A stretch of DNA of 64,000 nt from the NCBI GenBank assembly GCA_050944835.1, contig JBMNRV010000004.1, positions 12,695-76,694 of the forward strand, given 5' to 3'. Positions 8,376-61,153 of this stretch are shown one piece after another. The DNA comes from Kiritimatiellia bacterium. GTDB taxonomy: Bacteria > Verrucomicrobiota > Kiritimatiellia > JAAZAB01. The position numbers and the translations under genes are program-made. Below the pieces are notes generated by a model, which saw only the letters and a list, made by a program, of their open reading frames with translations, was not told the DNA's origin and ran no database searches. The stretch's first letter is position 1, and every line of letters begins with the position of its first letter.

Positions 8376-8737
8376 CAAAGCAGGAATAATCCTTGCTATT
8401 ATCATAATTAAAAGGACATGATGAATTAACGCCACTAGCATCCCCCCTAGCCTGCCATCATCCCCCCTCTGCCTGAGCGAATGTGATGTGTATAACGGCG
8501 GCAAATTACCACGATTGGCGTTTGCCCGAGCGCTATGTCGCCAAGCTTAGCGAGCGCATCTATTTCCAAACACAACGAGGTCTATTCGTAAAGAAAGAAT
8601 GTGGTGGAATCCACTTCCGGCTTGACTTTTTCATAGAGTTAACTTAAAAGTCTAGCCAATAAACACGGCGGCGGTCCGCCTTTTTAAAAAAAACGAAGCG
8701 CACAGTATAGACGTATCTGAAACTTCAGGAGAATCCC

Positions 8738-44102: not shown

Positions 44103-45869
44103 CTACTTGGCGGTTTCAATCGGCTTGACTGCATATATTCCGCGTGCCGACCGGACTTCAATGGCCAACTGGTCATTTGCGCCGGTCCGCGCCAGCCATT
44201 CGAGTTCCACCTTACCAATCCGCGCCGGGAGCGGATCAATCGCCGTCTCCCGCCGCCCCTGTAATATTTCCATCGCTCCCGAAGACTTTAGGCACACATT
44301 AACTTCGGCATGGGGAACGACGCTGGCGCTCATCCGGGTGATATAAGTTGGGAGCTTGCCGGTATTCCTGATCACGGCCTTGACACGGTATATGCCGTCG
44401 GCTATCGGAACGGCGCTCGCCGCGCTGATTTCAATTTCAGGCGCCCAGGTCATGTATTCCAGGCAGAAGGCGACACACTTGGCGCACAATTCGGCTCTTT
44501 CCTCGGGAGGCGGATTGACGTGGCCGATGATATTAAATCCGCCTATTTCAACTTTTCCAAGCTGGGGATGGTCAAACGGTTTCCATTCATGAAACACGCC
44601 GCCATCGGGATGTTGGTCGTGCCAACGGAGCATTGCCAGGCCGAGCGGTTCCGGAAAATCCGGACCAATAACGTCTATGGACGTGTAATCGAACATAGGA
44701 AACGCCTGTCTGGAATTAAAACCCAGGTAATTATAAATCATGCCAAGCTCAAACACTAACGCGAGCTTGCCTTGGCGTTCATAACACCAATTCCAATAGG
44801 AGCCCGTAGTTTCGCCTTGCGGTTTGCCGGTTTTGATTTCCTCGTAACTGCTTAGCAGCGGCAGACCGGTCATGGCCTGCGCCTTTTCTCCGATCAGCGC
44901 GATCAACCGTGCGTCTTCGTCGTATTCGGCGGCCGTTTTAATGGCAGCCGTCGGATAAAAAATGGCCTGATTGCCGCCATGGAAATCCAAAACACCGACA
45001 ATATTTGTATGGCCAATAATAAAATCGGCCATGGCGCGCGTCTCCGGCTCGGACAACGGATATTTGCCCTGCCCCAGGAAATGGGGATAGGGCCGCCAAT
45101 TGGCAGTCGGAAAATCCCGGTTGAAGTCGCAACGCGCTTGAGACTGGTTCCGCGCCGTATCAAGTTCGCCGCCGTCCCAATCGTGGATCATTCCCTCGTC
45201 CACCAGGTAATAATACTCACCGGCGATTTGCGTGAGACGGCGGGTAAGCACAAGGCGGCTGTCATTGGTGGAAAGCACACACAGCCCGTCCGGACTCGGC
45301 CAACGCATGGACAGGATTTTGCCGTCACCGTCAATGTCTTCGGGCGTGATGCTGTTCTTTTGCGGCGCATCCACATACTTGCTGCGACACCATGAATTAT
45401 TGGAGGTGCGCAGAACATATTCCGCCCCATCAACGGCCAACCGCGGAATAATGTAAACCACCCTTTTGCCTAGCAGAGAGCGCAAAGCATCATCCCGGGA
45501 ATAATTGGCGCACAAATGCTCCGCCAGAACCAAGCAAAGCCGGCTACCCGTCATTTCAACGGCGTGCAAGTTGGCTTGGAACACGAAAGCCGGGCGATAC
45601 TCCAATGGAATCCCGTCCGAACGCTCCGCCGCAATTTCAAGGAGCCAGACATTGCGTCCCTCGGGAGTGACGGCCATGGATTGCAAGGAAACAAGATTCG
45701 GATAAGCCGCGGCCAGCGCCTGCACCTTGGCGGTCAATTGCGCATAATTGTCAAATCCGCCATAACTGGACGCGGCGGCCGACTTGATATTTTCAGGTTT
45801 TACCGGTTGCATTCCAGCCGCAAGCGCCGCGGCAACCAAAAACATAATATGCCATGATTTCATATGCAT
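44103..45869 (-). CDS. M14-family zinc carboxypeptidase, secreted
   Basis: YDNYAQLTAKVQALAAAYPNLVSLQSMAVTPEGRNVW (M14 N-region); HAVEM (HxxE zinc ligands); IIPRLAVDGAEY; DFNRDFP; SEPETRAMADFI; DFHGGNQAIFYP. Start moved to MHMKSW because the listed N-terminal extension overlaps the upstream gene in another frame. Confidence 0.7.
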   Translation of the reverse strand: MHMKSWHIMFLVAAALAAGMQPVKPENIKSAAASSYGGFDNYAQLTAKVQALAAAYPNLVSLQSMAVTPEGRNVWLLEIAAERSDGIPLEYRPAFVFQANLHAVEMTGSRLCLVLAEHLCANYSRDDALRSLLGKRVVYIIPRLAVDGAEYVLRTSNNSWCRSKYVDAPQKNSITPEDIDGDGKILSMRWPSPDGLCVLSTNDSRLVLTRRLTQIAGEYYYLVDEGMIHDWDGGELDTARNQSQARCDFNRDFPTANWRPYPHFLGQGKYPLSEPETRAMADFIIGHTNIVGVLDFHGGNQAIFYPTAAIKTAAEYDEDARLIALIGEKAQAMTGLPLLSSYEEIKTGKPQGETTGSYWNWCYERQGKLALVFELGMIYNYLGFNSRQAFPMFDYTSIDVIGPDFPEPLGLAMLRWHDQHPDGGVFHEWKPFDHPQLGKVEIGGFNIIGHVNPPPEERAELCAKCVAFCLEYMTWAPEIEISAASAVPIADGIYRVKAVIRNTGKLPTYITRMSASVVPHAEVNVCLKSSGAMEILQGRRETAIDPLPARIGKVELEWLARTGANDQLAIEVRSARGIYAVKPIETAK

Positions 45870-45885: not shown

Positions 45886-47484
45886 CTAGTAGACATTGAA
45901 GAACGTGCCTCTCCGGATATATTCGTAAGCGCCCATATCCACAACACCGTAGCGGATGCGCCGGCGGCCGTCCAGATCAAGCTGCCCATCCGCCACCCAC
46001 TGGTTATCGCCTTGATCAATGCAGGGCGAATCGGATTTCAGACGGAAATCGCCGGCCGCGTAATTTGCAAACCCCGCATCGCCAGCAATGTTATTGGCGC
46101 CGATAGTTATAGCATTGGTGTTATACGCACATGAATTATACACCACGCCAGTGTAATAGCCGTAATCCACCACGCTGTAAATATCGTTTCCCGGATGAAC
46201 AGCGTTGCCCCTATTGCTTTGAGCAATGGTGTTATAGATGCCGGAACCGCCGTGACGCACACTTACACCGCCATAGACGCTCCCCAATGATTTATTGCTG
46301 ACTACGGTACAGTTGATGATTTTGCCATAGTTTGCTGTATAGAACAAAACCGCCGCGCCATTAGCATCATAAGCGGTATTGCCCGCCACCAGAGAATTTT
46401 GAAGCGTTCCGCCCACAGTTATATACGCCCCGGCGCCGCGACCGGCATGATTGCCGATGAGATGACTGCCGCTGACAAAACAATTTGCATTTAAATACGC
46501 TCCGCCACCGTGGCCATCTCCGTTCGTCGCATAGTTCCAACTGATATTACAGTTACTGATCACTATATACGGATCCTGGAGATAGCAATAAATCCCACCA
46601 CCGTATGATGCCTCGTTAGACACAATTGTGCAGCGCGCCACTGTGGCGGTGCCCCAGATAAACAGCCCGCCGCCGTAATTGGCTGACCAGTTATTGGCAA
46701 TGACACTGTCCGCTACCGCCACCTCAACCAGCGACGTCCCATTGCGCATGGCCATCCCGCCCCCGCCGTTCCCCGCCGACGTTATATAAGAATAATTATT
46801 GCTGATAAAGCATCTGCGCACGACCCCCTTCATGAACGTATAAATTCCCCCGCCGGAAGCCTTGGCATGATTTTCATAAATCTGACAGTCCACAATCAGC
46901 CCATTATTCAAGCCCACTCCTCCACCTGTCCAGCCCGACTCCATATTCACGCTGTTATAGCTCACCACGCAGTTGCTCAACATGCCGCCGCCGTCGACCT
47001 TAACCCCACCCGCGTCCTGCGTAGACCGATTCCGGGTGATAATGCAGTTTTTTACGGTCCCGCCCTTAGTGGTTATCTGCACTCCGCCGCCGGCCGCACC
47101 GGCGCCGTTGGTGATGGTAAACCCGTCCACCACTGCATCCGCGTGATTGAGGTAAAAACAGCGGTAGGTGTCCCGGCCGTTCACAAAAGTCTCTGTCCGG
47201 CCGTACAAACTGGTGACAATAATGCCGGAACCTACCGTAACCACATCATTCAGATTATACGTGCCGTTGGACACCAACACCACGTCGCCAGGCTCATTCG
47301 CCTTGGCTACTCCCTGGTTGATGCTGGCCACGGCGTTAGCCCAGGAATCACCGGAGTTCCCGTCATTCCCAGCCAACGACACGTAAACGGTTTTCGCCCA
47401 TACTCCGCAAGTGGCCACCAAAAGACAGCCCAGCCAAACACATCCGCGCAACAACCGACTCCAATCCAATAATGCGACCTTCAT
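45886..47484 (-). CDS. Secreted right-handed parallel beta-helix repeat protein with C-terminal DMGAYE tail; carries the conserved MKVALLD... N-terminal leader
   Basis: Gly-rich helix rungs (GGGVQITT, GGGIYCY, GHGGGAYL). C-terminus VVDMGAYEYIRRGTFFNVY. Paralog of the 28-1665 protein. Confidence 0.7.
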   Translation of the reverse strand: MKVALLDWSRLLRGCVWLGCLLVATCGVWAKTVYVSLAGNDGNSGDSWANAVASINQGVAKANEPGDVVLVSNGTYNLNDVVTVGSGIIVTSLYGRTETFVNGRDTYRCFYLNHADAVVDGFTITNGAGAAGGGVQITTKGGTVKNCIITRNRSTQDAGGVKVDGGGMLSNCVVSYNSVNMESGWTGGGVGLNNGLIVDCQIYENHAKASGGGIYTFMKGVVRRCFISNNYSYITSAGNGGGGMAMRNGTSLVEVAVADSVIANNWSANYGGGLFIWGTATVARCTIVSNEASYGGGIYCYLQDPYIVISNCNISWNYATNGDGHGGGAYLNANCFVSGSHLIGNHAGRGAGAYITVGGTLQNSLVAGNTAYDANGAAVLFYTANYGKIINCTVVSNKSLGSVYGGVSVRHGGSGIYNTIAQSNRGNAVHPGNDIYSVVDYGYYTGVVYNSCAYNTNAITIGANNIAGDAGFANYAAGDFRLKSDSPCIDQGDNQWVADGQLDLDGRRRIRYGVVDMGAYEYIRRGTFFNVY

Positions 47485-47575
47485 ACTACCCCTCCTGTTA
47501 TGTATTAATGTTACCTGTCCGTGTTCTCTCCCGTCCGTGTCCGTCTTTTTTATGTTACCCTCCTGTTATGTATTA
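47375..47575 (-). repeat. Conserved leader cassette copy 1: 5'UTR (duplicated cattaatacataacaggagg segment) plus first ~35 codons MKVALLDWSRLLRGCVWLGCLLVATCGVWAKTVYVSL
   Basis: Aligns with 53350-53480 and 57790-57915 (minus-strand reading ...ttaatRcataacaggWgg...ATGAAGGTCGCATTRTTGGAT...). Confidence 0.8.
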
Positions 47576-47593
47576 ATGTTTCACCGACAACAC

Positions 47594-50500
47594 TCATAAA
47601 GACCGGCGCCATGAACGATGCAGGGTGATTTTGTCGCCCGGCCCCACCACCATGAGCCGGATCATCCGGCGGCCATCGCCGTCCCGGTCGGGAAAATGCT
47701 CTGGATTGACAGGGCCAACCGCCTCTTCCAGTTCTATTTCCCTTTCACCGACCGACACCACCCGCCCCACCGGCTCGTGCGCCTCGTTGACAACCGTCAT
47801 GCCCGGTTCCACATAAAACAAAGCGTCTGGATACACCCGCAGTCGGCGCCCCTTAATCCTATCAACGTACAACACATTTTCATAAAGTTCGTTATCGCCG
47901 ACATTGAACCGATCCGCGGCCAGTATCTTTTCAACCGGTATCGCGCTCCCATAAATCCCATTCGTAAGTCCTCGCGTCACAATGGCCGTGCCACCCGCCG
48001 GCTGAAGCCCTTGCAGTATCGGGCCGGAAAGCGTTATTTCCCCTTTCTCATAGTCAACGCTTTTTACCACCGCCGTAAGGTCCGCCAGTTCATCCTGCGG
48101 CGGCGGCAGCAGCGACTCAAGGCCGGCGCTCCTATTGTTATCCAACAGATATATCCACCGTAACTCGCCGTCGGCGCCCTGCTCCAGCGCCGCCGTGCGG
48201 GCAGCGATTTTTACATCCCCGCCGTCCAACTCCAAAATGGAAGCGGACTCCCCATCCGGAGTCTCCAGTCTTGAAAAGACCACGTGCTTCCGGCCACCCA
48301 TGGATATTTCCAGCGCCACCGGCAGATCCTGCCCCGCCAGCGGCAGAACACGCACCGAATCAATGAACGGCGTTTTGCGGTACGGCTCATACACCGCGAC
48401 ATAGACGCTCTCCAGATCATCCCCCGACCGGCGGCGAACCAGAAACTTGACCGGCTCGGAAAATCCGCCCTGCCGTGGAACGCCGTCGCAGGCAAACACG
48501 GTCTCACCCTGTCCGTCCTGGTGGGCGGCAAGAATATGCGCCCGGAGCGCCACATCGTCTGACGCGTCTAAATGCCAGCTCGCGCCGGCGGCGCTGTTAC
48601 CGCTAAGCCTGGCCTCCTGCGCGTTGAACAGCCATTGGAAACCGCTGCCGCGGTAATCCCAATACGGCACATTTCCCTTGTTATAGCGTTTCGCCACATT
48701 TTCCGGCGTGAAACGTGCGTCATCATAAAAACATCCATAGGGAACATTCGTCCCGGCAAGAGTTCCATTAGTGACCGGGGCGCCAAAATCAAGGCTGCTC
48801 TTAAATTCCGCTTTGGGTGGACCGTGCACCAGCCAGTCATGCTGTTTTCCACCGCGGACCCGGAAGATATCCACGATATAAGCATTCGTGGGCGACACAT
48901 CCACGAGCATCAGCGTCCGGCGATAGAGTTTTACGTCATCATAACAATCTTCGGACGAGACCTCCACCAACTGAGCAAAAGCTCCGGGATCATAAACATG
49001 CAAACGCCCCTTGTTAATCTGTCTGGTGGCATTTTCACTTGAACATGTTTTCTTGGTCATCTGCTTGGCGGCGTTGATCATGACGGTATTATGGGCCAAC
49101 GTGTTATAAATATAGGTTTCGTAGAATCCTTTGCTGCCGGTCACATAACCGAAATCCGGAATCAGCGCATGCCCTTGGGAGTATATATCCAACTGCAGGC
49201 GATCCCAGTGGGAATGAAACGGATAGTAACCATAAAGAATTGCCAGGGCCGTCCGATTGGTTCCCGTGCCGGTCTGCAGGCTGGCCCAACCCAGTCCGGG
49301 TAAAAGCTCGCTGGTTACACCCAATACATCTGGATATTTTCCGGCTGACGCCGCCAACTCCTCGTCAGTGGCCCACTCGCAAAAGAGGTCTGGAGCGCGC
49401 GGCTTGCCGGTAAAGAGGTCTGTTTTATTATTGCCGGACTTGTCACGCCGCATTTGAAGCAGCGCCTTGGCAACAAGCACATCATGCGTCAGGTTGTAAG
49501 CAACCTCAAACACATCACGCTCCCTTACGCTCCCGGCGGCATGTGAGGGAGTGTCGCCAAAGGCCGGCAGGAATTCCCCGGCGCAAATCATCCGCATGGG
49601 CCAGGTGAACATCTTACGGAAACGATCCCGCCGGACAATTTCCTCCATTCGCGTGCGCTCCTTCACGGGCAGACATGGCAATTCATAAGCTATCTTAGCG
49701 AATGAATCAAGCATCAAGGTGTTATAATGCGGGGCAGACCAGGGAAAACCATCGCCATGGATCAGATTGTTGAATTGTTCCTCCAATCCCAGACAACTGA
49801 TATACCATGAGCCCTTTGGCTTCGGATCGGGATTGGATATCGCGCTTTGTATCAATTTGCTATCCCGCAGCGTGACACCCAGCCGCAGGAGCGCCAATTG
49901 CTGCACACCGCAGGAGGAAACCACACGATTATTACCGGCCATAATGTCATCGGCCATAACGCGCAGAAAGCGGCTCTCGATCCGGTCGCAAATTTCCGCG
50001 CCAGTCAGACCGGTCAGCTTTAGAAGCGCCGCGTCATTTTCGATGGCCGGCCGCACAGCATCATAAGCCGGCGGAGCGATGCAGGCCGGGCCCAGACACT
50101 CCCAACCGCGGTTCAGCATGCGCCCCCGGTAGTCAGGGCGCGACTCTCCTTCGCGCGACTGTTTTTCATAAAAATACCGCGGGTAATATTCAGCCACCTG
50201 CCAGAGCAACAAGGCGCAGGCATGGGCGTAACGCGCATCATCAGTGAACAGGTAAGCCCGGCTCAAATCATCCAGCGCCGGCAGAAAATGGCGCATAATC
50301 AGTTGGTGCGCATAATACGCCACAAACCACACTTTGCGGTCTTCCCCGGGAACATGCCAACCCCAGCCGTCGTCCGGGAATTCCCCGGTAAGCAGACTGC
50401 GATCCTTGCAACCACTCCTCAAAAATGCCTCAAAATCGTTTGAGGGATACTCCCTGCCATTTGGCGCAGTGAGTTTCCACGGCTTGTCAAAGGACACTTG

Positions 50501-50833
50501 CCAGTTATAGGGGTACATCTCCAAATCGCCCGACTTGAAGGTAACGCCGACTTCATAAGGAATTACCGCGCGCGGCACGTTGGGTGGCGGAACAAGCGTG
50601 CGCAACTTTTCATCGTCGTATTTCAGCCACTTGTCCGTGCGGGCAATGATTGCGTCCCGTTCCAGCCGCGCCCACTCATATTTTTCAAGGTTTTGTTTTA
50701 AAACCGCCATTTTGGCGGCGGTATAATAAGCGCGCTCCGCTCCGGCCCGGGCCGAATTAACGCCCGCGCAAAACAGCGCAGTCAGGCAGAAGATAATCCC
50801 ATGCGCGCAGTTTATTGTAGCGGAGCGCTTCAT
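47594..50833 (-). CDS. Heparinase II/III-like polysaccharide lyase (alginate-lyase-like N-domain plus Hepar_II_III C-domain), secreted, 1079 aa
   Basis: YGYYPFHSHWDRLQLDIYSQGHALIPDFGY matches the heparinase II/III H-x-H-x-D...G...D-x-G core. Signal peptide present. GGAGGTG RBS. Confidence 0.75.
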   Translation of the reverse strand: MKRSATINCAHGIIFCLTALFCAGVNSARAGAERAYYTAAKMAVLKQNLEKYEWARLERDAIIARTDKWLKYDDEKLRTLVPPPNVPRAVIPYEVGVTFKSGDLEMYPYNWQVSFDKPWKLTAPNGREYPSNDFEAFLRSGCKDRSLLTGEFPDDGWGWHVPGEDRKVWFVAYYAHQLIMRHFLPALDDLSRAYLFTDDARYAHACALLLWQVAEYYPRYFYEKQSREGESRPDYRGRMLNRGWECLGPACIAPPAYDAVRPAIENDAALLKLTGLTGAEICDRIESRFLRVMADDIMAGNNRVVSSCGVQQLALLRLGVTLRDSKLIQSAISNPDPKPKGSWYISCLGLEEQFNNLIHGDGFPWSAPHYNTLMLDSFAKIAYELPCLPVKERTRMEEIVRRDRFRKMFTWPMRMICAGEFLPAFGDTPSHAAGSVRERDVFEVAYNLTHDVLVAKALLQMRRDKSGNNKTDLFTGKPRAPDLFCEWATDEELAASAGKYPDVLGVTSELLPGLGWASLQTGTGTNRTALAILYGYYPFHSHWDRLQLDIYSQGHALIPDFGYVTGSKGFYETYIYNTLAHNTVMINAAKQMTKKTCSSENATRQINKGRLHVYDPGAFAQLVEVSSEDCYDDVKLYRRTLMLVDVSPTNAYIVDIFRVRGGKQHDWLVHGPPKAEFKSSLDFGAPVTNGTLAGTNVPYGCFYDDARFTPENVAKRYNKGNVPYWDYRGSGFQWLFNAQEARLSGNSAAGASWHLDASDDVALRAHILAAHQDGQGETVFACDGVPRQGGFSEPVKFLVRRRSGDDLESVYVAVYEPYRKTPFIDSVRVLPLAGQDLPVALEISMGGRKHVVFSRLETPDGESASILELDGGDVKIAARTAALEQGADGELRWIYLLDNNRSAGLESLLPPPQDELADLTAVVKSVDYEKGEITLSGPILQGLQPAGGTAIVTRGLTNGIYGSAIPVEKILAADRFNVGDNELYENVLYVDRIKGRRLRVYPDALFYVEPGMTVVNEAHEPVGRVVSVGEREIELEEAVGPVNPEHFPDRDGDGRRMIRLMVVGPGDKITLHRSWRRSL

Positions 50834-51235
50834 TATTCAAACACCTCCAATGTCATCCCACACACAGACAGACGCGTATGGAGCCCGGACTGGAGCAAAC
50901 CGCCAAGGCGCCAAGGGAAGCAAGAGAGAAAGTTTATTGGAGTGATATGGCAGGCCGCGCTGTCCGCCATGCGGGCATGGATCGGCGGACACCTGGATAC
51001 TCGAATGAATTCGCGTATCAGGGTGTCAACCAATCCGCCAGACCGGCAGATGCCGGTCAACGCGGCATGCGTTCGTGATCCAAAAAACTTGCTTCTTCCT
51101 CCACGTCTCCGCGTCTTCGCGTGACACCATACCCTCTTGTGCATCTTGTGCATCTTTGTGGCTAATCTCCTTCCCTAAACTCCTCCTCCGCGTTCCCGCG
51201 CCTCCGTGTGCCCCTCTCCCTTCTCAATCTGCGTT

Positions 51236-53203
51236 TTACTCTGCAGAATCATTACCGTTACTTACACGTCCATCGTCCTTTTCGTCAACGACACCGCGGC
51301 CGAGCGCCCAGAACAGGTATTTCAAATCAAAAATTCCGCCGATACAAATCCAGATGAGGACGACTACACCGATTATAAAACCGAGCCAGGCCTTAAAATG
51401 CCAGAACTTAGACCACCAAGCCACAGAGGTCTCGCCAAAACAATGGTAGATCGTTACACCTGCAAAAAACACCAGCCAGGCAAGCTGCCAGAACTGCCAG
51501 GCAAAATAGATTATTTTATCGCCAAAGGTGAACTCGTCGGTCAGGCCTAGCCGCTTCCAACTGAAGATTTTCACACTCTTGACACCGTGCTCTCCGGCCT
51601 TGTCATACTTGCCGCGGTGCAGCAGTTTCTCAAGATTGTAATCTTGCTTATAGGTCAAAAGGGAAATGACAACATAAAGCGTCGTGCATATCAGGCAGGA
51701 AGTAATATATATCTGTTGGCTATTGAAGAGCAGTTCGCCTGATTCCTTCAGGAAAAAGGCCGGCTTGATCTGTTGCAGCGCCATGCCGCCAAGCGACAAC
51801 ACGGCGCCGGTAATCATCGCGGTCCATGCCGCCGGCGCTGTGCCCTTTTTCCAGTATAAGGCTCCGATAATACACACCCCTGCCCCGGAGACAAAAATAC
51901 TGAAAGTGACGTTCAAAAAGACAAACAGATACTCAACCTGCCGGAAAAAATAACCGAAGAGATAAATCAGCGCGCCGACTAGAACGATTGAAATGCGCAG
52001 CCAGAAAATATGTTGAGTAGTGGTGAACGGTTGCTTGCGCAGAGGCGCCACCACATCCTGAATAAAAATTGAACCCCATGAATGAAAATTGGTGTCATCC
52101 GCGCTAATGGAAATTGCCGCCATGAAAGTGGCAAACAGGCCTAACATCCCGACTGGTAAAACCAAACCAAGCGCCGTAGGCGTCAACATCTGTGTGCGCA
52201 GGGTCGGGTTGGCAATGCCGCTTAAAACCTGATTAACTTTTTCAGCCACCGGCTGATAGCTGGAGTTGTACATGATCACGTAAACAGCGGCCGGGATCAT
52301 CATCAACATCAGAGCTTGAACCACGCCGCGCCAGCCGCTTATAAGTGAGGCCATCCGGTTCTCATGCGGGGTTTTTGCGGCGCAAGCATAGCCCCGCGAG
52401 CCCTGCCAAGCAAACTGGGAATAAAACGTGGTAAACATTCCCCAGACCCAATACCATGCATTATAAGCCTTGAGTCCTTCAGAGCGGTAGGGATGCACCA
52501 GCGAAACCCCCTCCGGCGCCGCGGTCATTGCATTGATAATGGAATCCCAGCGGGGCACAACCGCAACGAATACAAATACCAGCAACACGATAAACATGAT
52601 ATTGCAGAACATGCCCTGTATAAAATCGGTAACCGTGATGGCCACCTGACCGCCGACAGTCGCGAAGAAGACCCCAATCGCTATAATCAAAAACAAGATG
52701 GAGGCATAAGTGTCCAACGGCATACCCGCCACGGAATACGTCTCTGGCAAGCCGCAAAAATATATAAAAAACCGCGCCGTAACTGCTGGGAAAATGCCGT
52801 AATTTATGATGCCGGCCACCCAGGCCAGGATGCCGGTGAAAATCCTGAATTTTTTGCTATAGCGGGCTTCAAACAATTGGGACAGCGTAAACACCCGCGT
52901 TTCCCGGTAACGATAAACAAGCCAGCCGGTCAATGCCAAAAACAAAAAAACCGGCCAACGTGTCATATACCACCAAGCCGGCGTGAAACCGGCAACGTAA
53001 TACATTTCAAAAGCGCCAATTATGGAGACCGTGCCCAACCAGGTAATATCCGCTGAAATGCTCAGCACATAACGACCGGCGCAGCGGTTGGCCGCCAGAA
53101 AATCGGCGGGACTTTTGATATAGCGGTTGCAATAAAAAAGAACCGCTACCAGAAACGCGATAAATACTCCGAGTATGCTCCAGTCTATCCAATGCATGTA
53201 CAT
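51236..53203 (-). CDS. Sodium:solute symporter family (SSF) transporter, 655 aa
   Basis: 13-14 TM helices and SSF-type sequence (e.g. ...GGQVAITVTDFIQG..., RYIKSPADFLAANR). Confidence 0.8.
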   Translation of the reverse strand: MYMHWIDWSILGVFIAFLVAVLFYCNRYIKSPADFLAANRCAGRYVLSISADITWLGTVSIIGAFEMYYVAGFTPAWWYMTRWPVFLFLALTGWLVYRYRETRVFTLSQLFEARYSKKFRIFTGILAWVAGIINYGIFPAVTARFFIYFCGLPETYSVAGMPLDTYASILFLIIAIGVFFATVGGQVAITVTDFIQGMFCNIMFIVLLVFVFVAVVPRWDSIINAMTAAPEGVSLVHPYRSEGLKAYNAWYWVWGMFTTFYSQFAWQGSRGYACAAKTPHENRMASLISGWRGVVQALMLMMIPAAVYVIMYNSSYQPVAEKVNQVLSGIANPTLRTQMLTPTALGLVLPVGMLGLFATFMAAISISADDTNFHSWGSIFIQDVVAPLRKQPFTTTQHIFWLRISIVLVGALIYLFGYFFRQVEYLFVFLNVTFSIFVSGAGVCIIGALYWKKGTAPAAWTAMITGAVLSLGGMALQQIKPAFFLKESGELLFNSQQIYITSCLICTTLYVVISLLTYKQDYNLEKLLHRGKYDKAGEHGVKSVKIFSWKRLGLTDEFTFGDKIIYFAWQFWQLAWLVFFAGVTIYHCFGETSVAWWSKFWHFKAWLGFIIGVVVLIWICIGGIFDLKYLFWALGRGVVDEKDDGRVSNGNDSAE

Positions 53204-53230
53204 AATAAGACCCTGTTGTTTTCCGATTCC

Positions 53231-53453
53231 TTAATAGATACTGAAAAACGTGCCGTTATGAATATATTCGTAAGCGCCCATATCCACAATGCCGTAGCGG
53301 ATGCGCCGGCGTCCATCCAGATTAAGCTGCCCATCCGCCACCCAATGACACGTAAACGGTTTTTGCCCATACCCCGTCAGCGGCCGCCAAAAGACAGCCC
53401 TGCCAAACCCATCCGCGCAACAACCGACTACGATCCAACAATGCGACCTTCAT
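53231..53453 (-). pseudogene. Deletion remnant of a beta-helix paralog: first ~38 codons (MKVALLDRSRLLRGWVWQGCLLAAADGVWAKTVYVSL) fused out of frame to the last ~32 codons (...QLNLDGRRRIRYGIVDMGAYEYIHNGTFFSIY*)
   Basis: 53231-53345 aligns with 45895-46010 (3' end of gene 45886-47484), and 53345-53460 aligns with its 5' end. The junction lies at a ttgg(c/g)tgg microhomology, and the fused reading frame stops after 43 codons (GGGWAA*). Confidence 0.7.
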
Positions 53454-53480
53454 ATTCCACCACCTGTTATGCATTAATGT
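53350..53480 (-). repeat. Conserved leader cassette copy 2 (drives the remnant ORF, immediately upstream of the SSF transporter)
   Basis: ...ggtgaaacattaatgcataacaggtggtggaatATGAAGGTCGCATTGTTGGATCGTAGTCGG... Confidence 0.8.
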
Positions 53481-53527
53481 TTCACCAAGTCGTTTGCAAC
53501 AATTCAAGCATACGCGTTGATGACATT

Positions 53528-56500
53528 TCACCCCGACATTCCTGGGCCTTTCCATGCCCTGATAAAAACATGGCCAGCGCCGCGCAATAGTTGCGCGCTG
53601 ATCGTCAGCCTGGATTTGTCCGGGCCGACAGCAATGTCGTTGTCAGCGAGTTCGCCGCGCAAATTCCGGTTTTCATCATAAACCGCCACCTTCGAGACTG
53701 GGAACGGCAAAACAATCTCTATTGCATAAGGCGTTTCCAGACGGTAAAGCATTTCTTCCCCGGCATCCTCGCACAAATCCAAGGCAAGCATGACCGGCAC
53801 AAAATAACTATCACCCGCTTGCAGGTCGCAAATCTGGAATGAATCGCCGACCGCAAAGCCGTCGTTGTCGTCAACCTGTATAATATACTCATGACGCACC
53901 TTATTGATATGTGTCGCGCGGCCGTTGCAGGAATTAAGAATCATCTTGTTCTTAAAATAATCGTTATCGCGGTTTTGCAAATCAAGCGGGCCTAAACTGT
54001 AAGGCAGGAAATACCAGGTTTTAATCGTATTGTTTGAGACCAACCCGGCGACCTTGCCATCCGCGATGAAAAACGACGGTTCCCGGACGGTGACGGTTGC
54101 CTTATCCTCTCCCGCTATCGGCTGAATTTGATTGATATGATAGAGACTGCCATGGGAATATGCGCCGGCATTGAAATGGATGCGGTCACACCCCGAAAAT
54201 TCCGGGAGCCGCCCGCTGAGCGTCATTTCATTCCGCGCATAATCAATGGCGGCAATCTCACCCTGAAACGGCTGCGGGGCAATTGCTTTAATTTTCCAGC
54301 CACCGAAATCAGCCTCGGTACCGTTGAATAAACGCATTTTCAGCAATTGGCCATCTTTCACCGAGCAGAAAAAGTATTCGCCGCTGAACGAGCCCAGGGA
54401 ACGATCCCCCTCGCGCAACAGGTGCGCAACCGCCGGATTCCCGGCCCGGGCAATATAATCCAGCCGTTTTTCAGCCGGCCGGGGCGTATTGGCCGCAGGC
54501 AACCCCCCACTCTTGTTATCCAGATACATTTCCACCAACCCCATGCCGCCATCGGCCGTCAAACAAAACCGGAGCAAATGTTTTCCGGCGGACAAATGGA
54601 TGTTGCCGACTGGGACAGTTGCATATTCAAAAGTTGAAGTGGCGCTTTTCCCATCAAAGACGGAGCCGACCGGCTGGTCGTCAATGAACGCCTGCCATTC
54701 GCCGAAGTGGCGCGTCCGCAGAAACTTAAAAGCCAGATCGTATTCCGCCGACTCCGGTGTTTCAAACTCAAAGGCGATGGAATTTCCCTTCAGAGCCGAG
54801 GCGATCATCAGTGAATTATAAAGAGCGTCACGTTCCGTATTCAGGCCCAATGACTCCTTGACCGGCGCTTTTATAAATTCGTAAATCATCAGATTATTCT
54901 TATCGGGACGAGTTTCGTCCGCAGCGACAGTGTTTACGCTTAAAACCGCTCCGCAGGGATCCGGATCGCTTTCCGCAGAAGGTCCGCCGGCGGAAACGGG
55001 AACAACCGTCAACTCCCCGACCTGCAAGACCGCCGGCTCACGCTCATAGAAATGGATAACGCTGAAAAACCGGCTGACACCGTCTCCTTGGTCCCGGGCA
55101 ATCACAAATTTGGTTTTGGTCGGCGGCGGCGACAAGGGTCCATCAGCCACGAATATGCTCCGGCCCGCCGCCGGCAGCATAGTCAATTCCACGTTTGCCG
55201 GGTAATATTCGTCGCACGCGCTCCAGCGCGCGCTCCATAGGCAGTTGCCTTCGGCTTGCGCATAGTCAATCAGGAACCCATACCCGGCGCCAGGCGGACC
55301 CCGCTGGTATTTAGACTCGGGCGTCCATCCCTTAACACGGTAATCGGCCATAATGGCATCGCCATAACGAATGTCCGGTCCGGCCATGGAACCGGCGCGC
55401 ACAATCTCCCCCATGGCCAGACCGGTTGTGGAAAAATCGCCCTCAATGGAATGGAAGGAATAGTCGCGCTGGCGGCCACCGCCAACATCAAAAATATCAA
55501 CCAGATAAACATCGCTATCGTTAATGTCAACAAGCGCCAGATTACGGCGATACAAGGAAATATCCTCAGCCTGATAAGCGGTTTCATCATGTGCCTCGGC
55601 GACACTGAAGCCGGGCGAAGCAAAAAAGTAATTCAAGCTTCCCCCGCCGCCGGCATCCTCAAGCTGCGACTTGCCGTTAACGGCAACAGTATTATGCGCA
55701 ATGGTGTGCCCAGCCCAGCCGTAGCGGAAATGATTGGCGCCGCCACCGGTTTCCAGCGACAATTCCCGCCCCAGACCGTAAAACAGAAAAGCCAACTCGT
55801 CCAGATGCCCGTGGTTTAGGGTGGGACCATAGCGGAAAAACACACTGGACTCGTTCGTCCTGGGACCGGCACGAAGCAAAACCAGCCCATTGCAGCCGAA
55901 CAAGGCGCTTGGGTTGCGGTCCGGCGTCTCCGGCGGCGGATTGCTGGTAAAATCCGGCGCATGGAAAAGGAGCCAATCATCGGCTTCATAGGCGCCGACG
56001 ACATCCCCGCCGGTATAACCATCCAGAATCTGCCGGTATTGCGAAGCGTTGTCAGGATCATACACGTAAAACTTTACGGCATTGATAAAATCGCGGCGGT
56101 TGAACGGCGGTGGATTGCGGATGATGGCCCGGTCAATCGTATGGTCGCCGAAGTGCGGGAAATGGCCGGAACAGAGATATTTTGACTCACCGCCCAAAAT
56201 GCCTTTACGGTAAACGGGATGGGCGTAAAAATTATACCCCCGGGGATAGTCCGGATTGCGCAGGTTGACGCAAATCGTAGCAATCATTTCCCAAAGCTCG
56301 CGCGTATGGCTTTCATACATCCCTGATGTTTCGTAATAACAGCCATCCCGGTCAAAAGTGTTGGCAAAAAAATTCGGGAGGGCGTAAGGACTAAGGCGCA
56401 GAAGATGATCAACATAATATTTGATCCCCAAGGTTGACCCGACCGACATAACCCCCATAGCCAGGTCCAATCCCCCATTGGTGAAACGATACTGGCCGCT

Positions 56501-57889
56501 GTTGAGCAGCGCCATGCAGTAATCGGCGCTTTTCAACAGAAGTTCATGACGGACATGTTCCTCAATTGTCGTATAGCGGGAGTCGCGGGAAGGCCCGGAA
56601 AAACTCTCCGACATGCAGAGAATGTCATAAGCGGGCGCATAATGACTCGACAAACAAAACGCCACCTGATATTGGGACGCCTGCATGCGTCCGCCACCCG
56701 GATAGTCAACCGGCCCGTCGCAAGCAGGATCAAGCGAGGCGATACAATCCAGGATCAAGGCCGCTTTGTGCGCGTATTTTTCCTCGCCGGAAAGCACATA
56801 CATATAGCAGAGCGACTTCAAAACACTGTCCATTAATTTCTTGACACAGGAAGAATTATAAACACCTAAAAAGCAATGGCGCTTGCCGGTGTCAGGATTA
56901 AACCACCCTTGACCATCATCCGGATGTTCCGCATCTGGAAATTTATGGCGGTTCTTGCAGACAACCTGATGCGGATCTTCAAAACCAACGGCATGCAGAC
57001 GTTCACCGCAAAGCGGGCAAAGCAAGTAATCCAGCCCCCAGATAAAAACCGCATTGGTGGCAGGCATCATTTTCACAATATCAGCATCACTAATATCCAG
57101 CCATTTCTCCGCGGTTTTTTGATATTCCCGATATAACTGCCGGGCCCAGTCATATTTTTCAACCCGCTGCCGGGCCGCGGCAATGTCGTCATGGTGCAAA
57201 AAGAGCGTGGGATGTTCCACAGGATAATTAAAACCTATAGCCTCCGGAATCACCGCGTCCGCCTTGGTATCCGCGTTGAGAAACTCAATTTCATTAATGG
57301 CAAATCCACGGTTGGTGACGTTCCATGTTTCCACGAAAGCAATGCTTATGTTCGTGGCCATGACGGCAGGAAAAGCGATCTGCTGCGGGCCCTCGGCGTT
57401 GATAAAGACTCTCTCAATGGGCGCGTCGCCGTTCAAGGTAAACCGCATCGTTTTCCAGCGGGCAAATCCTTCCCGCGCGCGGAACCTGGTGGTATCCTGA
57501 ATAGAAATGCGGATTTCATTAACTTGGACGGCATTCTTGAACTTAAAATCAAGAACTATGGGGGAACCGGCATCGTATTTTTTATAAAAAAGCGATGAAA
57601 GGTCTCTGTCAAAAAGCGCATTTTTCAGGCGCGTCTTTTCCGCGTCCGTTAATCTTAAAGAGATCTCAACCTCCACATTATCCGGCTGAAAGACGGCAGT
57701 TGGCGGACAGGCAACGGCATCCGGAGATGGACATTGCTCCGCATGACACTGGCAACCGGCTGCAAACAGGCACGCTGATCCCAAAACAACAAACAACCGC
57801 GCCCATACCCCGCCGGCGGCCGCCAAAAGACAGCCCAGCCTAACACAGCCACGCGCCAACCGATTACAATCCAACAATGCGACCTTCAT
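53528..57889 (-). CDS. Giant (1453-aa) heparinase II/III-like polysaccharide lyase carrying the conserved MKVALLD... leader
   Basis: FFRYGPTLNHGHLDELAFLFYGLGRELSLETGG...HNTVAVNG is the Hepar_II_III core. N-terminus MKVALLDCNRLARGCVRLGCLLAAAGGVWA. Confidence 0.7.
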   Translation of the reverse strand: MKVALLDCNRLARGCVRLGCLLAAAGGVWARLFVVLGSACLFAAGCQCHAEQCPSPDAVACPPTAVFQPDNVEVEISLRLTDAEKTRLKNALFDRDLSSLFYKKYDAGSPIVLDFKFKNAVQVNEIRISIQDTTRFRAREGFARWKTMRFTLNGDAPIERVFINAEGPQQIAFPAVMATNISIAFVETWNVTNRGFAINEIEFLNADTKADAVIPEAIGFNYPVEHPTLFLHHDDIAAARQRVEKYDWARQLYREYQKTAEKWLDISDADIVKMMPATNAVFIWGLDYLLCPLCGERLHAVGFEDPHQVVCKNRHKFPDAEHPDDGQGWFNPDTGKRHCFLGVYNSSCVKKLMDSVLKSLCYMYVLSGEEKYAHKAALILDCIASLDPACDGPVDYPGGGRMQASQYQVAFCLSSHYAPAYDILCMSESFSGPSRDSRYTTIEEHVRHELLLKSADYCMALLNSGQYRFTNGGLDLAMGVMSVGSTLGIKYYVDHLLRLSPYALPNFFANTFDRDGCYYETSGMYESHTRELWEMIATICVNLRNPDYPRGYNFYAHPVYRKGILGGESKYLCSGHFPHFGDHTIDRAIIRNPPPFNRRDFINAVKFYVYDPDNASQYRQILDGYTGGDVVGAYEADDWLLFHAPDFTSNPPPETPDRNPSALFGCNGLVLLRAGPRTNESSVFFRYGPTLNHGHLDELAFLFYGLGRELSLETGGGANHFRYGWAGHTIAHNTVAVNGKSQLEDAGGGGSLNYFFASPGFSVAEAHDETAYQAEDISLYRRNLALVDINDSDVYLVDIFDVGGGRQRDYSFHSIEGDFSTTGLAMGEIVRAGSMAGPDIRYGDAIMADYRVKGWTPESKYQRGPPGAGYGFLIDYAQAEGNCLWSARWSACDEYYPANVELTMLPAAGRSIFVADGPLSPPPTKTKFVIARDQGDGVSRFFSVIHFYEREPAVLQVGELTVVPVSAGGPSAESDPDPCGAVLSVNTVAADETRPDKNNLMIYEFIKAPVKESLGLNTERDALYNSLMIASALKGNSIAFEFETPESAEYDLAFKFLRTRHFGEWQAFIDDQPVGSVFDGKSATSTFEYATVPVGNIHLSAGKHLLRFCLTADGGMGLVEMYLDNKSGGLPAANTPRPAEKRLDYIARAGNPAVAHLLREGDRSLGSFSGEYFFCSVKDGQLLKMRLFNGTEADFGGWKIKAIAPQPFQGEIAAIDYARNEMTLSGRLPEFSGCDRIHFNAGAYSHGSLYHINQIQPIAGEDKATVTVREPSFFIADGKVAGLVSNNTIKTWYFLPYSLGPLDLQNRDNDYFKNKMILNSCNGRATHINKVRHEYIIQVDDNDGFAVGDSFQICDLQAGDSYFVPVMLALDLCEDAGEEMLYRLETPYAIEIVLPFPVSKVAVYDENRNLRGELADNDIAVGPDKSRLTISAQLLRGAGHVFIRAWKGPGMSG

Positions 57890-57915
57890 GTTATCCTATC
57901 TGTTATGTATTAAGC
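57790..57915 (-). repeat. Conserved leader cassette copy 3
   Basis: ...gcttaatacataacagataggataacATGAAGGTCGCATTGTTGGATTGTAATCGG... aligns with the other two copies. Confidence 0.8.
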
Positions 57916-58063
57916 TAAAAAGAAATAATCTTGCGCCATGACACAACCTGCTTCAAAAAAAATAGTTGTTTTTTACACATGAACATTTAGCCTTAAAAAA
58001 ATCGTTGCTGTTAAATAAATTTATGTTGGTTCCCAAATAAATTTCGCCTGAATCCATGACGGG

Positions 58064-59341
58064 TCAAGCGTCCACCATGCCGGCCTCCGCCACCATCCGC
58101 TCCACCGTCTCATATAAACGCGGTAACTCACTGATGGCGGCCCGGCCGCCGGGTCCAGCCCAGGGCAACCCCTGCTGGCTGGGCCACTCGCCGTTTTGGA
58201 TGAAACAGTCAGTCGCTTGAGATAGATCGTCAATTTGCAGGAATTCGGCCTGATCCTCCGGCTGGACTTTCCGCTGGATATATTGCGGAGAAATTTGGTG
58301 GATGCGCCCGGCGGCAACATACACCAGATCGCACAACTGCACAAACGGACGCGTATCCTCCAACCGGGTCAACGGCCGCTCCGCCTCGCCGCGCAAATAT
58401 GCATAATAAGCACAATGGTTTTCCTTCAGCTTAGTCATCGGCGTATCCGGCGCCAACGGTATTGGTATTGTTTCCTGTCGGCCGTCATGCCAAGCAATCC
58501 GGTATCCTTCTTCCTTAACGAAAATGCGCGCCTTATCACAAACCAGCCACTCCATCCGTTCAGGTTGCCAGCAGGCATGGGACATCACTATCGTCAGACG
58601 CACACCACCGCCCAGACCGGCGCGCACAAAGGACGTATCCATGCCTTGGATGGAATGCGCGCGGTAGAGTTCAGCCTCCGCCCATTCGACGGGCGCCCAA
58701 TCCAAGACATCACGCATACCGCCCCAAAAGAGAATATTATGCACGTAATGCGCCATAGCGTTACCCATGCCGGAATCCAACACCAGCCGCCCGTTCAGCA
58801 TCAGCCGCCCAGCCCATGGGGCCCGGCTGTAATAGTTGTTGGAGCGCTCCCATAGCCCGCGATAGCCGACTTCGCGCAGTTGGCCGAACTCGCCGGCCAC
58901 CAAGCGCTGCTTCATTTTCCGGCGCTCGCCTTCGACAATATGATTGAATCCCACCTGCGTCAACTTTTCGGCCCGCGCCTCCACCTCCAGCATCTCGTCC
59001 AATTCCTGGTAATTCAACGTGGGCGGCTTTTCCAGATAAACCGCCAAGCCGCGCTCGATACAGGCGCGGTGCATAGGGGCGTGCAGCGGCACCGGCGTGG
59101 GAATCACCACCATATCCAATTCGGCGGCACAGTAATCCAGCATGGCAAGATAATTGTCAAACACCTTGATGCCGCGGCGCCGGTATTCCCATTCCGACAT
59201 TTTGTCTTTGAATTTGCTCAAATCCGGATCGCAGGAACAGACCAACCGACAGGCGCCGGTTGCCTCCAACTGCTTCACCGCAAGCTGATGCGAGCCCGCG
59301 AAGCCGCCCATCCCGATAATGCCGACACTAATTGGCGCCAT
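58064..59341 (-). CDS. Gfo/Idh/MocA-family oxidoreductase (cytoplasmic)
   Basis: MAPISVGIIGMGGFAGSHQ Rossmann N-terminus, 425 aa. Confidence 0.8.
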   Translation of the reverse strand: MAPISVGIIGMGGFAGSHQLAVKQLEATGACRLVCSCDPDLSKFKDKMSEWEYRRRGIKVFDNYLAMLDYCAAELDMVVIPTPVPLHAPMHRACIERGLAVYLEKPPTLNYQELDEMLEVEARAEKLTQVGFNHIVEGERRKMKQRLVAGEFGQLREVGYRGLWERSNNYYSRAPWAGRLMLNGRLVLDSGMGNAMAHYVHNILFWGGMRDVLDWAPVEWAEAELYRAHSIQGMDTSFVRAGLGGGVRLTIVMSHACWQPERMEWLVCDKARIFVKEEGYRIAWHDGRQETIPIPLAPDTPMTKLKENHCAYYAYLRGEAERPLTRLEDTRPFVQLCDLVYVAAGRIHQISPQYIQRKVQPEDQAEFLQIDDLSQATDCFIQNGEWPSQQGLPWAGPGGRAAISELPRLYETVERMVAEAGMVDA

Positions 59342-59417: not shown

Positions 59418-60170
59418 TTAAGTTTTTTGACTGATTTTAATCTTACGCAAAGATTCCCGCTGTTCCCAGACCTTGGTAATCGCCATTACAATATCTCGCA
59501 TATCGGACTCATCGCCCAACAACACTGCATGCGGAATCCAACAGGCCTCACGACAAATCTGTTCCGTATTAGGGCAGACTACGGATTGATAATCCGTCGG
59601 CTGACCATAGAACGGACACGATCGCGGACAATTCCGTGGGCCATCGCCCGTCAATGAAAAGACTGGATTTTTATACAGCGGCGCCGGATAACCGAAGCTA
59701 GCGGGAATGCCCTCGGCCTCCAATGCCGCCAAAAACATCTCTCGTGTTATCCCATCCCACTTTTCCGCCAAGTGCCTGAAGACATACATATGATAACTTC
59801 GCCGCGTTACACGCGAATCACCACGCATCAACCCTAGTCCGCTCATCCCCTTTAACTGTTCATCTAAATATCTGGCGGTGGCCATAAAAGTATAGGGCGG
59901 CACTATCACCTCGTCTCCGGCGCCAATACCATTGGCCGCCATAGCCGCCTCCAACGCCAAAGTTCCATTGGCAAAGGTAACGCCATATTTCGCATCTTGA
60001 AACTCAGCGTAACGGCGCTCAAACTCCTGCACCTGCTCGCCATACCACCATTTCCCACTGTCAAAGACCCGTAAAAGATTTTCCCGCTCCTCCGGCCCGA
60101 AAACCGGCCATTCCGTAAATGGTTTGCTCCGAACCGCTTTGCCTCCCGCCAATGCCAATTTTTGCGTCAT
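59418..60170 (-). CDS. DegT/DnrJ/EryC1/StrS-like aminotransferase lacking the central PLP-lysine region (internally truncated; probable pseudogene or degenerate paralog)
   Basis: The N-terminal ~100 aa (…YGVTFANGTLALEAAMAANGIGAGDEVIVPPYTFMATA) and C-terminal ~100 aa (…YHMYVF…REMFLAALEAEGIPASFGYPAPLYKNPVF…) resemble the family, but the protein has only 250 aa versus the usual ~370-400. Confidence 0.5.
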   Translation of the reverse strand: MTQKLALAGGKAVRSKPFTEWPVFGPEERENLLRVFDSGKWWYGEQVQEFERRYAEFQDAKYGVTFANGTLALEAAMAANGIGAGDEVIVPPYTFMATARYLDEQLKGMSGLGLMRGDSRVTRRSYHMYVFRHLAEKWDGITREMFLAALEAEGIPASFGYPAPLYKNPVFSLTGDGPRNCPRSCPFYGQPTDYQSVVCPNTEQICREACWIPHAVLLGDESDMRDIVMAITKVWEQRESLRKIKISQKT

Positions 60171-60205: not shown

Positions 60206-61153
60206 TCACCGACAGTACTTGATAGTAATCAAAATGTCTTGTGGGCAATTGCCAAAATTTTTCCCAAACAGACACACCCCGCCCTGGTTTTTATCCTGTT
60301 CGTCTATTCCCAAGCGCAAAGTGTTGTAGGTTTTACTATTCAAATTCAAATCCGAGATTACCACTGATGAAATTTTCTCACCGTCAATAAAGGCGCCATT
60401 CCGGGTAACCTTCCACTCCTTGAACATGCCGTATTGATTATTTTTTCGCGGCCACCAGGCGGGGTTGTATCTCCCCCGTTTATCCGAGTAAAAACCCCAA
60501 GAATGCCAAGGGCCTATCTTTACGCCATTGATCCAAATACTGATATCAGAAGGGCACTCTTTATCAGAAGGGCGCGCTTTTTCTCCGTCAGGCCAATTGG
60601 CTTCCGACGATATTTCCATGGCAACCGTAATATCCTCCAGCGCTACATTGCGTGGATATTTGCGTGGAAAGCGATATTCTACCCAGCCCCGGCCAAACCA
60701 TAACAACTGAGCGGTGATGCGCTCCGGCTCCAAAAAAGTCCGGGGATCATCAAAGATTCCTATCATTTTCTCCGTATTAGCCAGACCGCAGGTTGGCTCA
60801 ACATGGCAATCGTGATAGCTGCCGATCGGGATGGAAATCCGGGTAGACACGTAGGAATCTTGGTCATCCTCTCTGGGATTAAAGCGAAAAACGATTTCGT
60901 TATACTGCGCTCTGCATATTTTCTGAGCGCCGTGAATCCCGGCACGCGTAATACACTGCACCAACCCTGTTTTTTCCAGAATATTCACAGCCTTAGTTGC
61001 ATAAGACTGGGAAACACCCAGCTCCTGCGCAATCTGCGATATATTCATATCTTTCTGCAAAAGCATCCTATAAACAGCTAACCTGCTCTTTGAGCCCAAC
61101 GCCTGAAAATATCGCGCGGCCGTCGTTGAATCACCCTCGATTAACTTTTGCAT
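60206..61153 (-). CDS. ArsR/SmtB-family winged-HTH regulator fused to a ~220-aa C-terminal beta-rich domain of unknown function
   Basis: N-terminus YFQALGSKSRLAVYRMLLQKDMNISQIAQELGVSQSYATKAVNILEKTGLV is ArsR-like. The C-terminal region has no recognisable catalytic motif (possibly a ConA/DUF1080-like sandwich). Confidence 0.6.
   Translation of the reverse strand: MQKLIEGDSTTAARYFQALGSKSRLAVYRMLLQKDMNISQIAQELGVSQSYATKAVNILEKTGLVQCITRAGIHGAQKICRAQYNEIVFRFNPREDDQDSYVSTRISIPIGSYHDCHVEPTCGLANTEKMIGIFDDPRTFLEPERITAQLLWFGRGWVEYRFPRKYPRNVALEDITVAMEISSEANWPDGEKARPSDKECPSDISIWINGVKIGPWHSWGFYSDKRGRYNPAWWPRKNNQYGMFKEWKVTRNGAFIDGEKISSVVISDLNLNSKTYNTLRLGIDEQDKNQGGVCLFGKNFGNCPQDILITIKYCR

Follow-up and report, generated by a model that had tools for sequence, protein, structure and literature searches.

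A probable deletion-derived relic of a beta-helix gene upstream of a sodium:solute symporter gene in a Kiritimatiellia genome

Between a heparinase II/III-like gene (hep1453) and a gene for a sodium:solute symporter (SSF), the genome of an uncultured Kiritimatiellia bacterium carries a 223-nt segment that raises a simple question: is it what is left of a lost gene, a regulatory element of the transporter downstream, or a small gene in its own right, as the annotation at NCBI has it? The segment was found in the window, by which we mean the whole 64,000-nt stretch of DNA that was analysed, and begins with an ATG 74 nt downstream of the hep1453 stop. All of the listed genes of the locus lie on the minus strand (Table 1), and the setting is apparently that of a long minus-strand polysaccharide-utilisation cluster and an active operon. 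The symporter, which corresponds to MGI6086650.1 at NCBI by exact-sequence look-up, has 2441 homologs. We propose that the segment is probably a non-functional remnant of a gene for a secreted right-handed beta-helix (choice-of-anchor Q) protein, made by internal deletion, and as such an ordinary pseudogene relic, the product of a well-known process in a recombination-prone polysaccharide locus.

Table 1. Features of the relic locus, in order of transcription (positions are those of the window).
Feature	Position	Strand	Description
Winged-helix (MarR/ROK-like) regulator	60206-61153	minus	5'-most of the listed genes
Short DegT-like ORF	59418-60170	minus	
GFO/IDH/MocA oxidoreductase	58064-59341	minus	
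Third cassette copy	57797-57913	minus	hep1453 leader and first 31 codons
hep1453	53528-57889	minus	Heparinase II/III-like gene, 1453 aa (Pfam)
Leader GGTGAAACATTAATGCATAACAGG and Shine-Dalgarno-like AGGTGGTGG	53454-53486	minus	Directly before relic ATG; motif search and alignment
Relic	53231-53453	minus	Between hep1453 and SSF
5' beta-helix fragment	53345-53453	minus	Start codon, 30-residue signal peptide, first mature residues KTVYVSL
Frameshifted 43-codon ORF	53322-53453	minus	Signal peptide and 13 residues
Deletion junction	53342-53348	minus	Within TTGG/GTGG; paralog nt 112 joined to nt 1489
3' beta-helix fragment	53231-53344	minus	Last 37 codons, second half of choice-of-anchor Q domain
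Spacer	53204-53230	minus	Relic's original stop to SSF start, 27 nt; carries SSF ribosome-binding region
Sodium:solute symporter (SSF) gene	51236-53203	minus	Downstream of relic; Pfam SSF, E 6e-21
hep1079	47594-50833	minus	Heparinase II/III-like gene, 1079 aa
Intact beta-helix paralog	45886-47484	minus	532 aa, right-handed beta-helix/choice-of-anchor Q; reference copy
M14 carboxypeptidase	44103-45869	minus	

Some further parts of the cluster deserve mention. The product of the DegT/DnrJ/EryC1-like ORF has a length of only 250 aa, its match to the profile is limited to positions 5-79 (of 360), and the ORF may be another truncated or decayed gene of the same cluster. The spacer between SSF and hep1079 (50834-51235, minus strand) measures 402 nt and contains purine-rich GGAG/ACGG stretches, as well as a 106-codon ORF (50833-51153) that looks non-coding. 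We also considered that hep1453 and hep1079 might be recent duplicates that had brought the beta-helix copy along, and rejected this, as the two are only 24% identical.

Two joined ends of a beta-helix gene

The intact paralog downstream of hep1079 is found at NCBI as MGI6086647.1 (exact-sequence look-up), and its choice-of-anchor Q domain (NF041518; 31.3 bits versus a cut-off of 25) occupies residues 479-522, at the C-terminus. When the minus strand of 53150-53560 was compared with the window by blastn, the 5' part of the relic matched 47512-47369 with 87.5% identity over 144 nt (E 1.9e-47), which takes in the beta-helix ORF up to nt 116 together with 28 nt of leader, and the 3' part matched 46002-45871 with 84.1% identity over 132 nt (E 1.3e-36), including the last 114 nt of the ORF with its stop and 15 nt of the paralog's downstream spacer. 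The two alignments overlap by 10 nt of the query at the junction. The original prediction that the two ends of a paralog of this gene (about 110 nt from the 5' end and about 115 nt from the 3' end) are directly joined thus agrees with alignments to the region of the intact gene that are highly significant for both halves, and we count about 110 and 113 nt for the two pieces. From the ATG to the original stop (TAA, 53231-53233), an ungapped comparison gives 196 equal bases out of 223 and 27 differences, and no indels. Of the 1599 nt of the paralog, the relic lacks 1376 (1376 mod 3 = 2), hence the join is out of frame, and the breakpoint can be placed anywhere after relic nt 106 to 112 (window 53348-53342). 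The residues KTVYVSL that follow the signal peptide occur only in the beta-helix gene and are absent from hep1453, which identifies the parent as a beta-helix gene.

As foreseen in the same prediction, the fusion reads as an ORF of 43 codons, whose translation is MKVALLDRSRLLRGWVWQGCLLAAADGVWAKTVYVSLGGGWAA and ends in GGGWAA before the stop; beyond the junction, its last seven residues come from reading the 3' fragment out of frame. NCBI lists the ORF as a hypothetical protein, ACOYCD_01705 (MGI6086651.1). Of about 532 codons, 73 survive, in two halves that are out of frame with each other, and by themselves the fragments score below the family thresholds of the choice-of-anchor Q and beta-helix profiles. 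In one JGI metagenome assembly (L008, introduced below) a 36-codon ORF with a GTG start is called over the 3' fragment instead (8314-8424), and exact look-up of this product returned no match in either its V-start or its M-start form. The predicted distance of 27 nt between the original stop and the SSF start holds for the ATG at 53203 (against 53231 for the end of the relic). There is a second ATG at 53197, which is probably the true start to judge from the consensus of the homologs (MHxIDW) and from the 653-aa product called by JGI, so that the spacer between relic and SSF would measure 33 nt rather than 27.

Origin of the relic and of its leader cassette

We propose that a beta-helix gene formerly lay between hep1453 and SSF within the polysaccharide-utilisation cluster, and that one deletion of about 1.38 kb would have removed about 86% of its coding sequence and shifted the frame. 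Its ends would lie in two short direct repeats that match imperfectly, TTGGCTGG at about codon 37 and GTGGGTGG at a distance of 37 codons from the stop, with replication slippage or microhomology-mediated end joining as likely mechanisms. On the paralog, the breakpoints do fall in TTGGCTGG/GTGGGTGG, in line with the join at a short imperfect direct repeat that had been predicted. The microhomology (three nt exact, TGG, and six of eight positions in the two repeats) was measured on this diverged paralog and is only suggestive because the true parent would be 12-14% different from the measured copy. Simulated at random in the paralog, deletions reach 3 nt or more of exact repeat with P = 0.06 and six or more matches out of eight with P = 0.03. 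A microhomology-mediated deletion is plausible on these grounds, and microhomology-flanked deletions have been described in bacterial pseudogene decay (PMC6054270; also PMC2916853, PMC2817411).

Distributed over codon positions 1, 2 and 3 in the original frames, the 27 differences between relic and paralog number 6, 6 and 15 (P = 0.014), a bias that fits divergence under purifying selection before the deletion. Together with the lack of indels, it suggests that most of the 12-14% divergence from the intact copy would have been gained while the parent was still a working gene, and that the deletion would be younger than the duplication. In the hydrophobic core of its signal peptide, the relic has W15, Q18 and D26 at positions taken by C, L and small residues in the three intact copies, which would fit relaxed constraint. 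Since the leader, the ribosome-binding site, the start codon and the signal peptide are retained, a 43-residue peptide may still be made; most likely, the relic is a neutral passenger that read-through from upstream would transcribe, just as it would have transcribed the intact gene.

A full-length parent of the relic, or an intact beta-helix gene at its position, was not found in the searched databases, and the ancestral state is for this reason one that we infer rather than see. If the alleles of the intact locus are set aside, no homolog of the beta-helix protein exceeds 41% identity, and the partial beta-helix proteins in its cluster are all alleles of the intact locus. A scan of GTDB genomes with the SSF protein gave no matches, a scan of JGI metagenomes recovered only relatives at 36-50% identity, and a profile scan of GTDB genomes gave 80 loci. 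None of these relatives shows a beta-helix gene in the available sequence upstream of SSF, which is shorter than 1 kb in several of them (e.g. L028, L029 and L053). For hep1453, there are no close relatives outside the species and one other relative at 34% identity. The closest diverged relative is L010 (SRR13306812), whose SSF gene is 85.7% identical at the nucleotide level. In its sequence (1-2764), SSF follows an M14 carboxypeptidase gene after 14 nt, with no beta-helix gene before it, and the homology upstream of SSF starts at the 27-nt spacer. The gene downstream of SSF in L010 is absent from the window, and no remnant of it was found in the window's SSF-hep1079 spacer. This order, M14 then SSF, indicates that the locus has been rearranged between lineages, and the history of the relic may involve more than one event. 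The closest non-conspecific SSF, at 68% identity, lies in L019 (8140-12045; GCA_028687435.1, a Verrucomicrobiia/Kiritimatiellia-type MAG), where it is followed by a distant hep1453 homolog (25% identity), such that the pairing of SSF with a heparinase-like gene recurs in the opposite order.

The 5' end of the relic belongs to a cassette of leader and signal peptide (MKVALLD..GVWA) of which the window holds three copies on the minus strand, at 57797-57913, 47392-47512 and 53361-53486, with 82-88% nucleotide identity. Its carriers are two otherwise unrelated genes, hep1453 and the beta-helix gene, plus the relic: the proteins of the two genes have 24 of 35 N-terminal residues in common and nothing else (BLASTP), and the 5' end of the relic is 84% identical to the start of hep1453 over 113 nt (blastn). 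The leader motif was found in 3 copies versus 0.02 expected (motif search), and a fourth, shorter copy lies at 57900-57913. What is conserved upstream of the ATG in the three cassette copies amounts to only about 14-25 nt, TTAATRCATAACAG, to which GGTGAAAC adds in two copies. In two copies, TTAATRCATAACAG extends to GGTGAAACATTAAT..., and the Shine-Dalgarno sequence and the 30-residue signal peptide come next. Past this leader of about 14-25 nt, at the location of a -35 box, no similarity was found among the three copies.

When 1.84 billion representative proteins were searched with a profile built from the three signal peptides, only three matches came back, namely the relic ORF (P0257), the cluster of beta-helix alleles (P0121) and an unrelated protein of low complexity (P0258, E 1.2e-4). 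A widespread sorting signal is thereby ruled out, the matches being the lineage's own and a weak unrelated one, and the restricted distribution points to DNA peculiar to this lineage, copied from gene to gene. Compared with the alternative allele (L006, L007, L009 and L017), whose spacer measures 51 nt, the beta-helix allele of the window has a 68-nt insertion (47513-47580, minus strand), in which the leader motif occurs a second time, as GTAACATTAATACATAACAGGAGGG, along with a purine-rich stretch of the ACGGA type. In the other alleles, about 10 nt separate the stop of the upstream gene from the start of the leader, within the 51-nt spacer, as would be expected for an intra-operon translation-initiation region.

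Strain variation and alternative readings

An identical relic with the same junction is present in five further assemblies of the same species: L001 (SRR31066179, 100% identical to the window), L002 (SRR13001970, 99.4%), L003 (ERR10905742, 99.1%), L008 (JGI 3300049647, 99.4%) and L009 (ENA ERZ2648110, 96.9%). In L002, L003, L008 and L009, the 324-nt spacer between hep1453 and SSF shows one substitution relative to the window, which falls outside the relic (53517). All strains sampled from the species carry the deletion, and among the members of the 90% clusters of SSF and of the beta-helix protein, those that could be traced either have the same relic or end before the region.

Around the relic, the locus varies strongly between strains. 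From 49300 to 46950, a stretch that covers the 3' two-thirds of hep1079, the leader and the 5' third of the beta-helix gene, alleles are only 65-87% identical in strains with 100% identical flanks (L006, L007, L017 and L009), and L006 is also divergent in 46560-45400 (the 3' third of the beta-helix gene and the start of the M14 gene). These alleles would be either recombination imports or diversifying alleles. The SSF-hep1079 spacer keeps its 402 nt in most strains and is replaced by 88 unrelated nt in L018 (958-1043). Over 11.5 kb, L008 differs from the window at 68 positions, with 46 of them in 51245-52931 and 17 in 53517-53917, that is, at densities of 2.7% and 4.2% between strains otherwise almost identical. 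The 585 nt in between (52932-53516), which include the relic and run 270 nt into SSF, show no difference at all (P ~2e-5 for such a gap, by permutation), and L002 and L003 have the same clustered positions of difference. This SNP-free island could in principle be a sign of constraint; its most economical reading is that two recombination tracts end on either side of the relic, as expected if the donor is structurally different there.

How well does a deletion relic stand against other readings of the same data? The original prediction itself had raised the concern of an assembly collapse, and the assemblies are apparently all short-read; yet the same join appears in six assemblies made with different assemblers, that is in five besides the window, four of which (L002, L003, L008 and L009) come from different samples and differ elsewhere. 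The number of differences from the intact copy also means that the relic could not be built from reads of that copy, and a 3-nt repeat is far too short for an assembly collapse. We thus exclude a collapse or chimera of intact-gene reads, to which we give a probability of practically nil. That the 43-codon ORF is a genuine small protein-coding gene, in accordance with the NCBI annotation, might be argued from its intact start, ribosome-binding site and signal peptide and from its prediction by a gene caller. This appears extremely unlikely given that the sequence is fully accounted for by the frameshifted fusion of the two ends of a 532-aa gene, that the seven residues past the junction are out-of-frame read-through, and that the signal-peptide profile recovers nothing other than this ORF, the P0121 allele cluster and the weak, unrelated P0258. 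A third possibility is an origin other than one deletion within a gene: a larger deletion may have fused the 5' end of one beta-helix gene to the 3' end of a further copy downstream, with loss of the genes in between, or the relic may be a by-product of locus rearrangements. The region is a recombination hot spot, as seen from its divergent alleles amid identical flanks, its spacers are variable among strains, the gene order differs in L010, and the three cassette copies offer sites for ectopic recombination. On the other hand, both halves are similarly diverged from the paralog (89.6% identity for the 5' half and 86.3% for the 3' half), blastn against the window reveals no trace of other genes in the 324-nt spacer, and the 3' half runs into a paralog-like spacer and then straight into the ribosome-binding region of SSF, a pattern expected from a single gene that once stood in front of SSF. 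It is because of the rearrangement between lineages seen in L010 that we leave some weight to such a larger or multi-step event, as an unlikely explanation, and prefer a single deletion in place.

It had further been predicted that a promoter of the conserved cassette might now drive the transporter, or that the remnant might act as a short leader ORF. That the relic has been co-opted in one of these ways, through a promoter in the leader region or through the 43-codon ORF as an upstream ORF modulating SSF, would be in keeping with its intact Shine-Dalgarno sequence, ATG and signal-peptide ORF, with its retention in all sampled strains inside the 585-nt island, between flanks that are 2.7-4.2% divergent, and with the call of a gene by the NCBI pipeline. 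Promoter capture was nevertheless not borne out. A scan of the minus strand for the sigma-70 consensus found no site in 53454-53527 or in the corresponding regions of the other two cassette copies (47485-47593 and 57890-58063), nor any terminator in these spacers, the matches across the region numbering 21, in line with shuffles (17.9 ± 5.2), and the conserved upstream part is too short for both promoter boxes. Whatever promoter the gene had would stay in place upstream of SSF after an internal deletion, and so nothing would have been captured: if the gene had decayed in place, SSF was already the next gene, 27 nt past its stop, and so already co-transcribed. The deletion would have taken 1.4 kb out of the transcript and, for ribosomes starting at the relic ATG, moved the stop from 27 nt to 118 nt before SSF, a distance that argues against translational coupling. 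In 53204-53527 (minus strand), there is no terminator-like site and no attenuator-like structure; the spacer matches no Rfam family, and its predicted RNA fold is marginally better than those of shuffles (z-score -1.78). Conservation of the ORF is without power here, as its carriers are all at least 97% identical. The ORF is absent from the 86%-identical L010. The SNP-free island extends over 270 nt of SSF coding sequence with zero synonymous changes, and since selection on the leader would not clear synonymous variation from SSF, it looks like a recombination mosaic. We consider co-option as a promoter or upstream ORF distinctly improbable, and it would be very improbable indeed that the relic has been kept as a useful cis element on SSF, its decay having been turned into a regulatory upstream ORF. 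Were it useful in cis, the nascent chain of the signal peptide could bring the polycistronic mRNA to the membrane, or else the ORF could set the translation rate of SSF. A relic that probably has no function is thus the reading that we retain.

Comparison with known systems

The significance of this relic is mostly practical, and no larger question is opened or resolved by it. MGI6086651.1 appears mis-annotated as a hypothetical protein and should be flagged as a pseudogene fragment. The relic also illustrates neatly how a single deletion out of frame could turn a gene of an operon into a spacer with the translation signals left behind, and it is one more sign that recombination and decay are quickly remodelling this Kiritimatiellia polysaccharide locus.

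With leader ORFs and attenuators that control transporter or biosynthetic genes downstream of them, the relic has in common a short translatable ORF upstream of a transporter gene in the same orientation. It differs from them in having no terminator/antiterminator alternative, no coupling distance and no conservation beyond one species, and in an origin that is fully explained by gene decay. Its relation to secreted choice-of-anchor Q/beta-helix proteins (NF041518; Pfam Beta_helix, DUF5123) is one of homology: both halves correspond to the ends of such a protein (the N-terminus and the C-terminal choice-of-anchor Q domain) that is encoded 6 kb away, while only 73 of about 532 codons are kept, unlike in intact members. 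As in microhomology-mediated deletions, whether by replication slippage between short direct repeats or by alternative end joining (A-EJ; Chayot et al., 2010, as cited in PMC6054270), the junction lies in a TGG within TTGGCTGG/GTGGGTGG of which one copy is left. It differs in that the repeat is short and its excess over chance, measured on the paralog, is marginal (P = 0.03-0.06), and the mechanism is indistinguishable from other illegitimate recombination.

The relic comes closest to the deletion-made pseudogene relics of bacteria, which together with deletional bias and the decay of redundant paralogs have been described in Rickettsia, Mycobacterium leprae, Salmonella and Burkholderia symbionts (PMC2817411, PMC2916853, PMC6054270). 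Like these, it has lost most of its length, shows a frameshift and a premature stop with a short repeat at the deletion, and has been kept as intergenic DNA between functional genes. What sets it apart is that the genome around it is not a reduced one but a polysaccharide-degrading Kiritimatiellia MAG of free-living or gut type, and that it lies within an apparently active operon, where both ends of the gene survive along with its translation signals.
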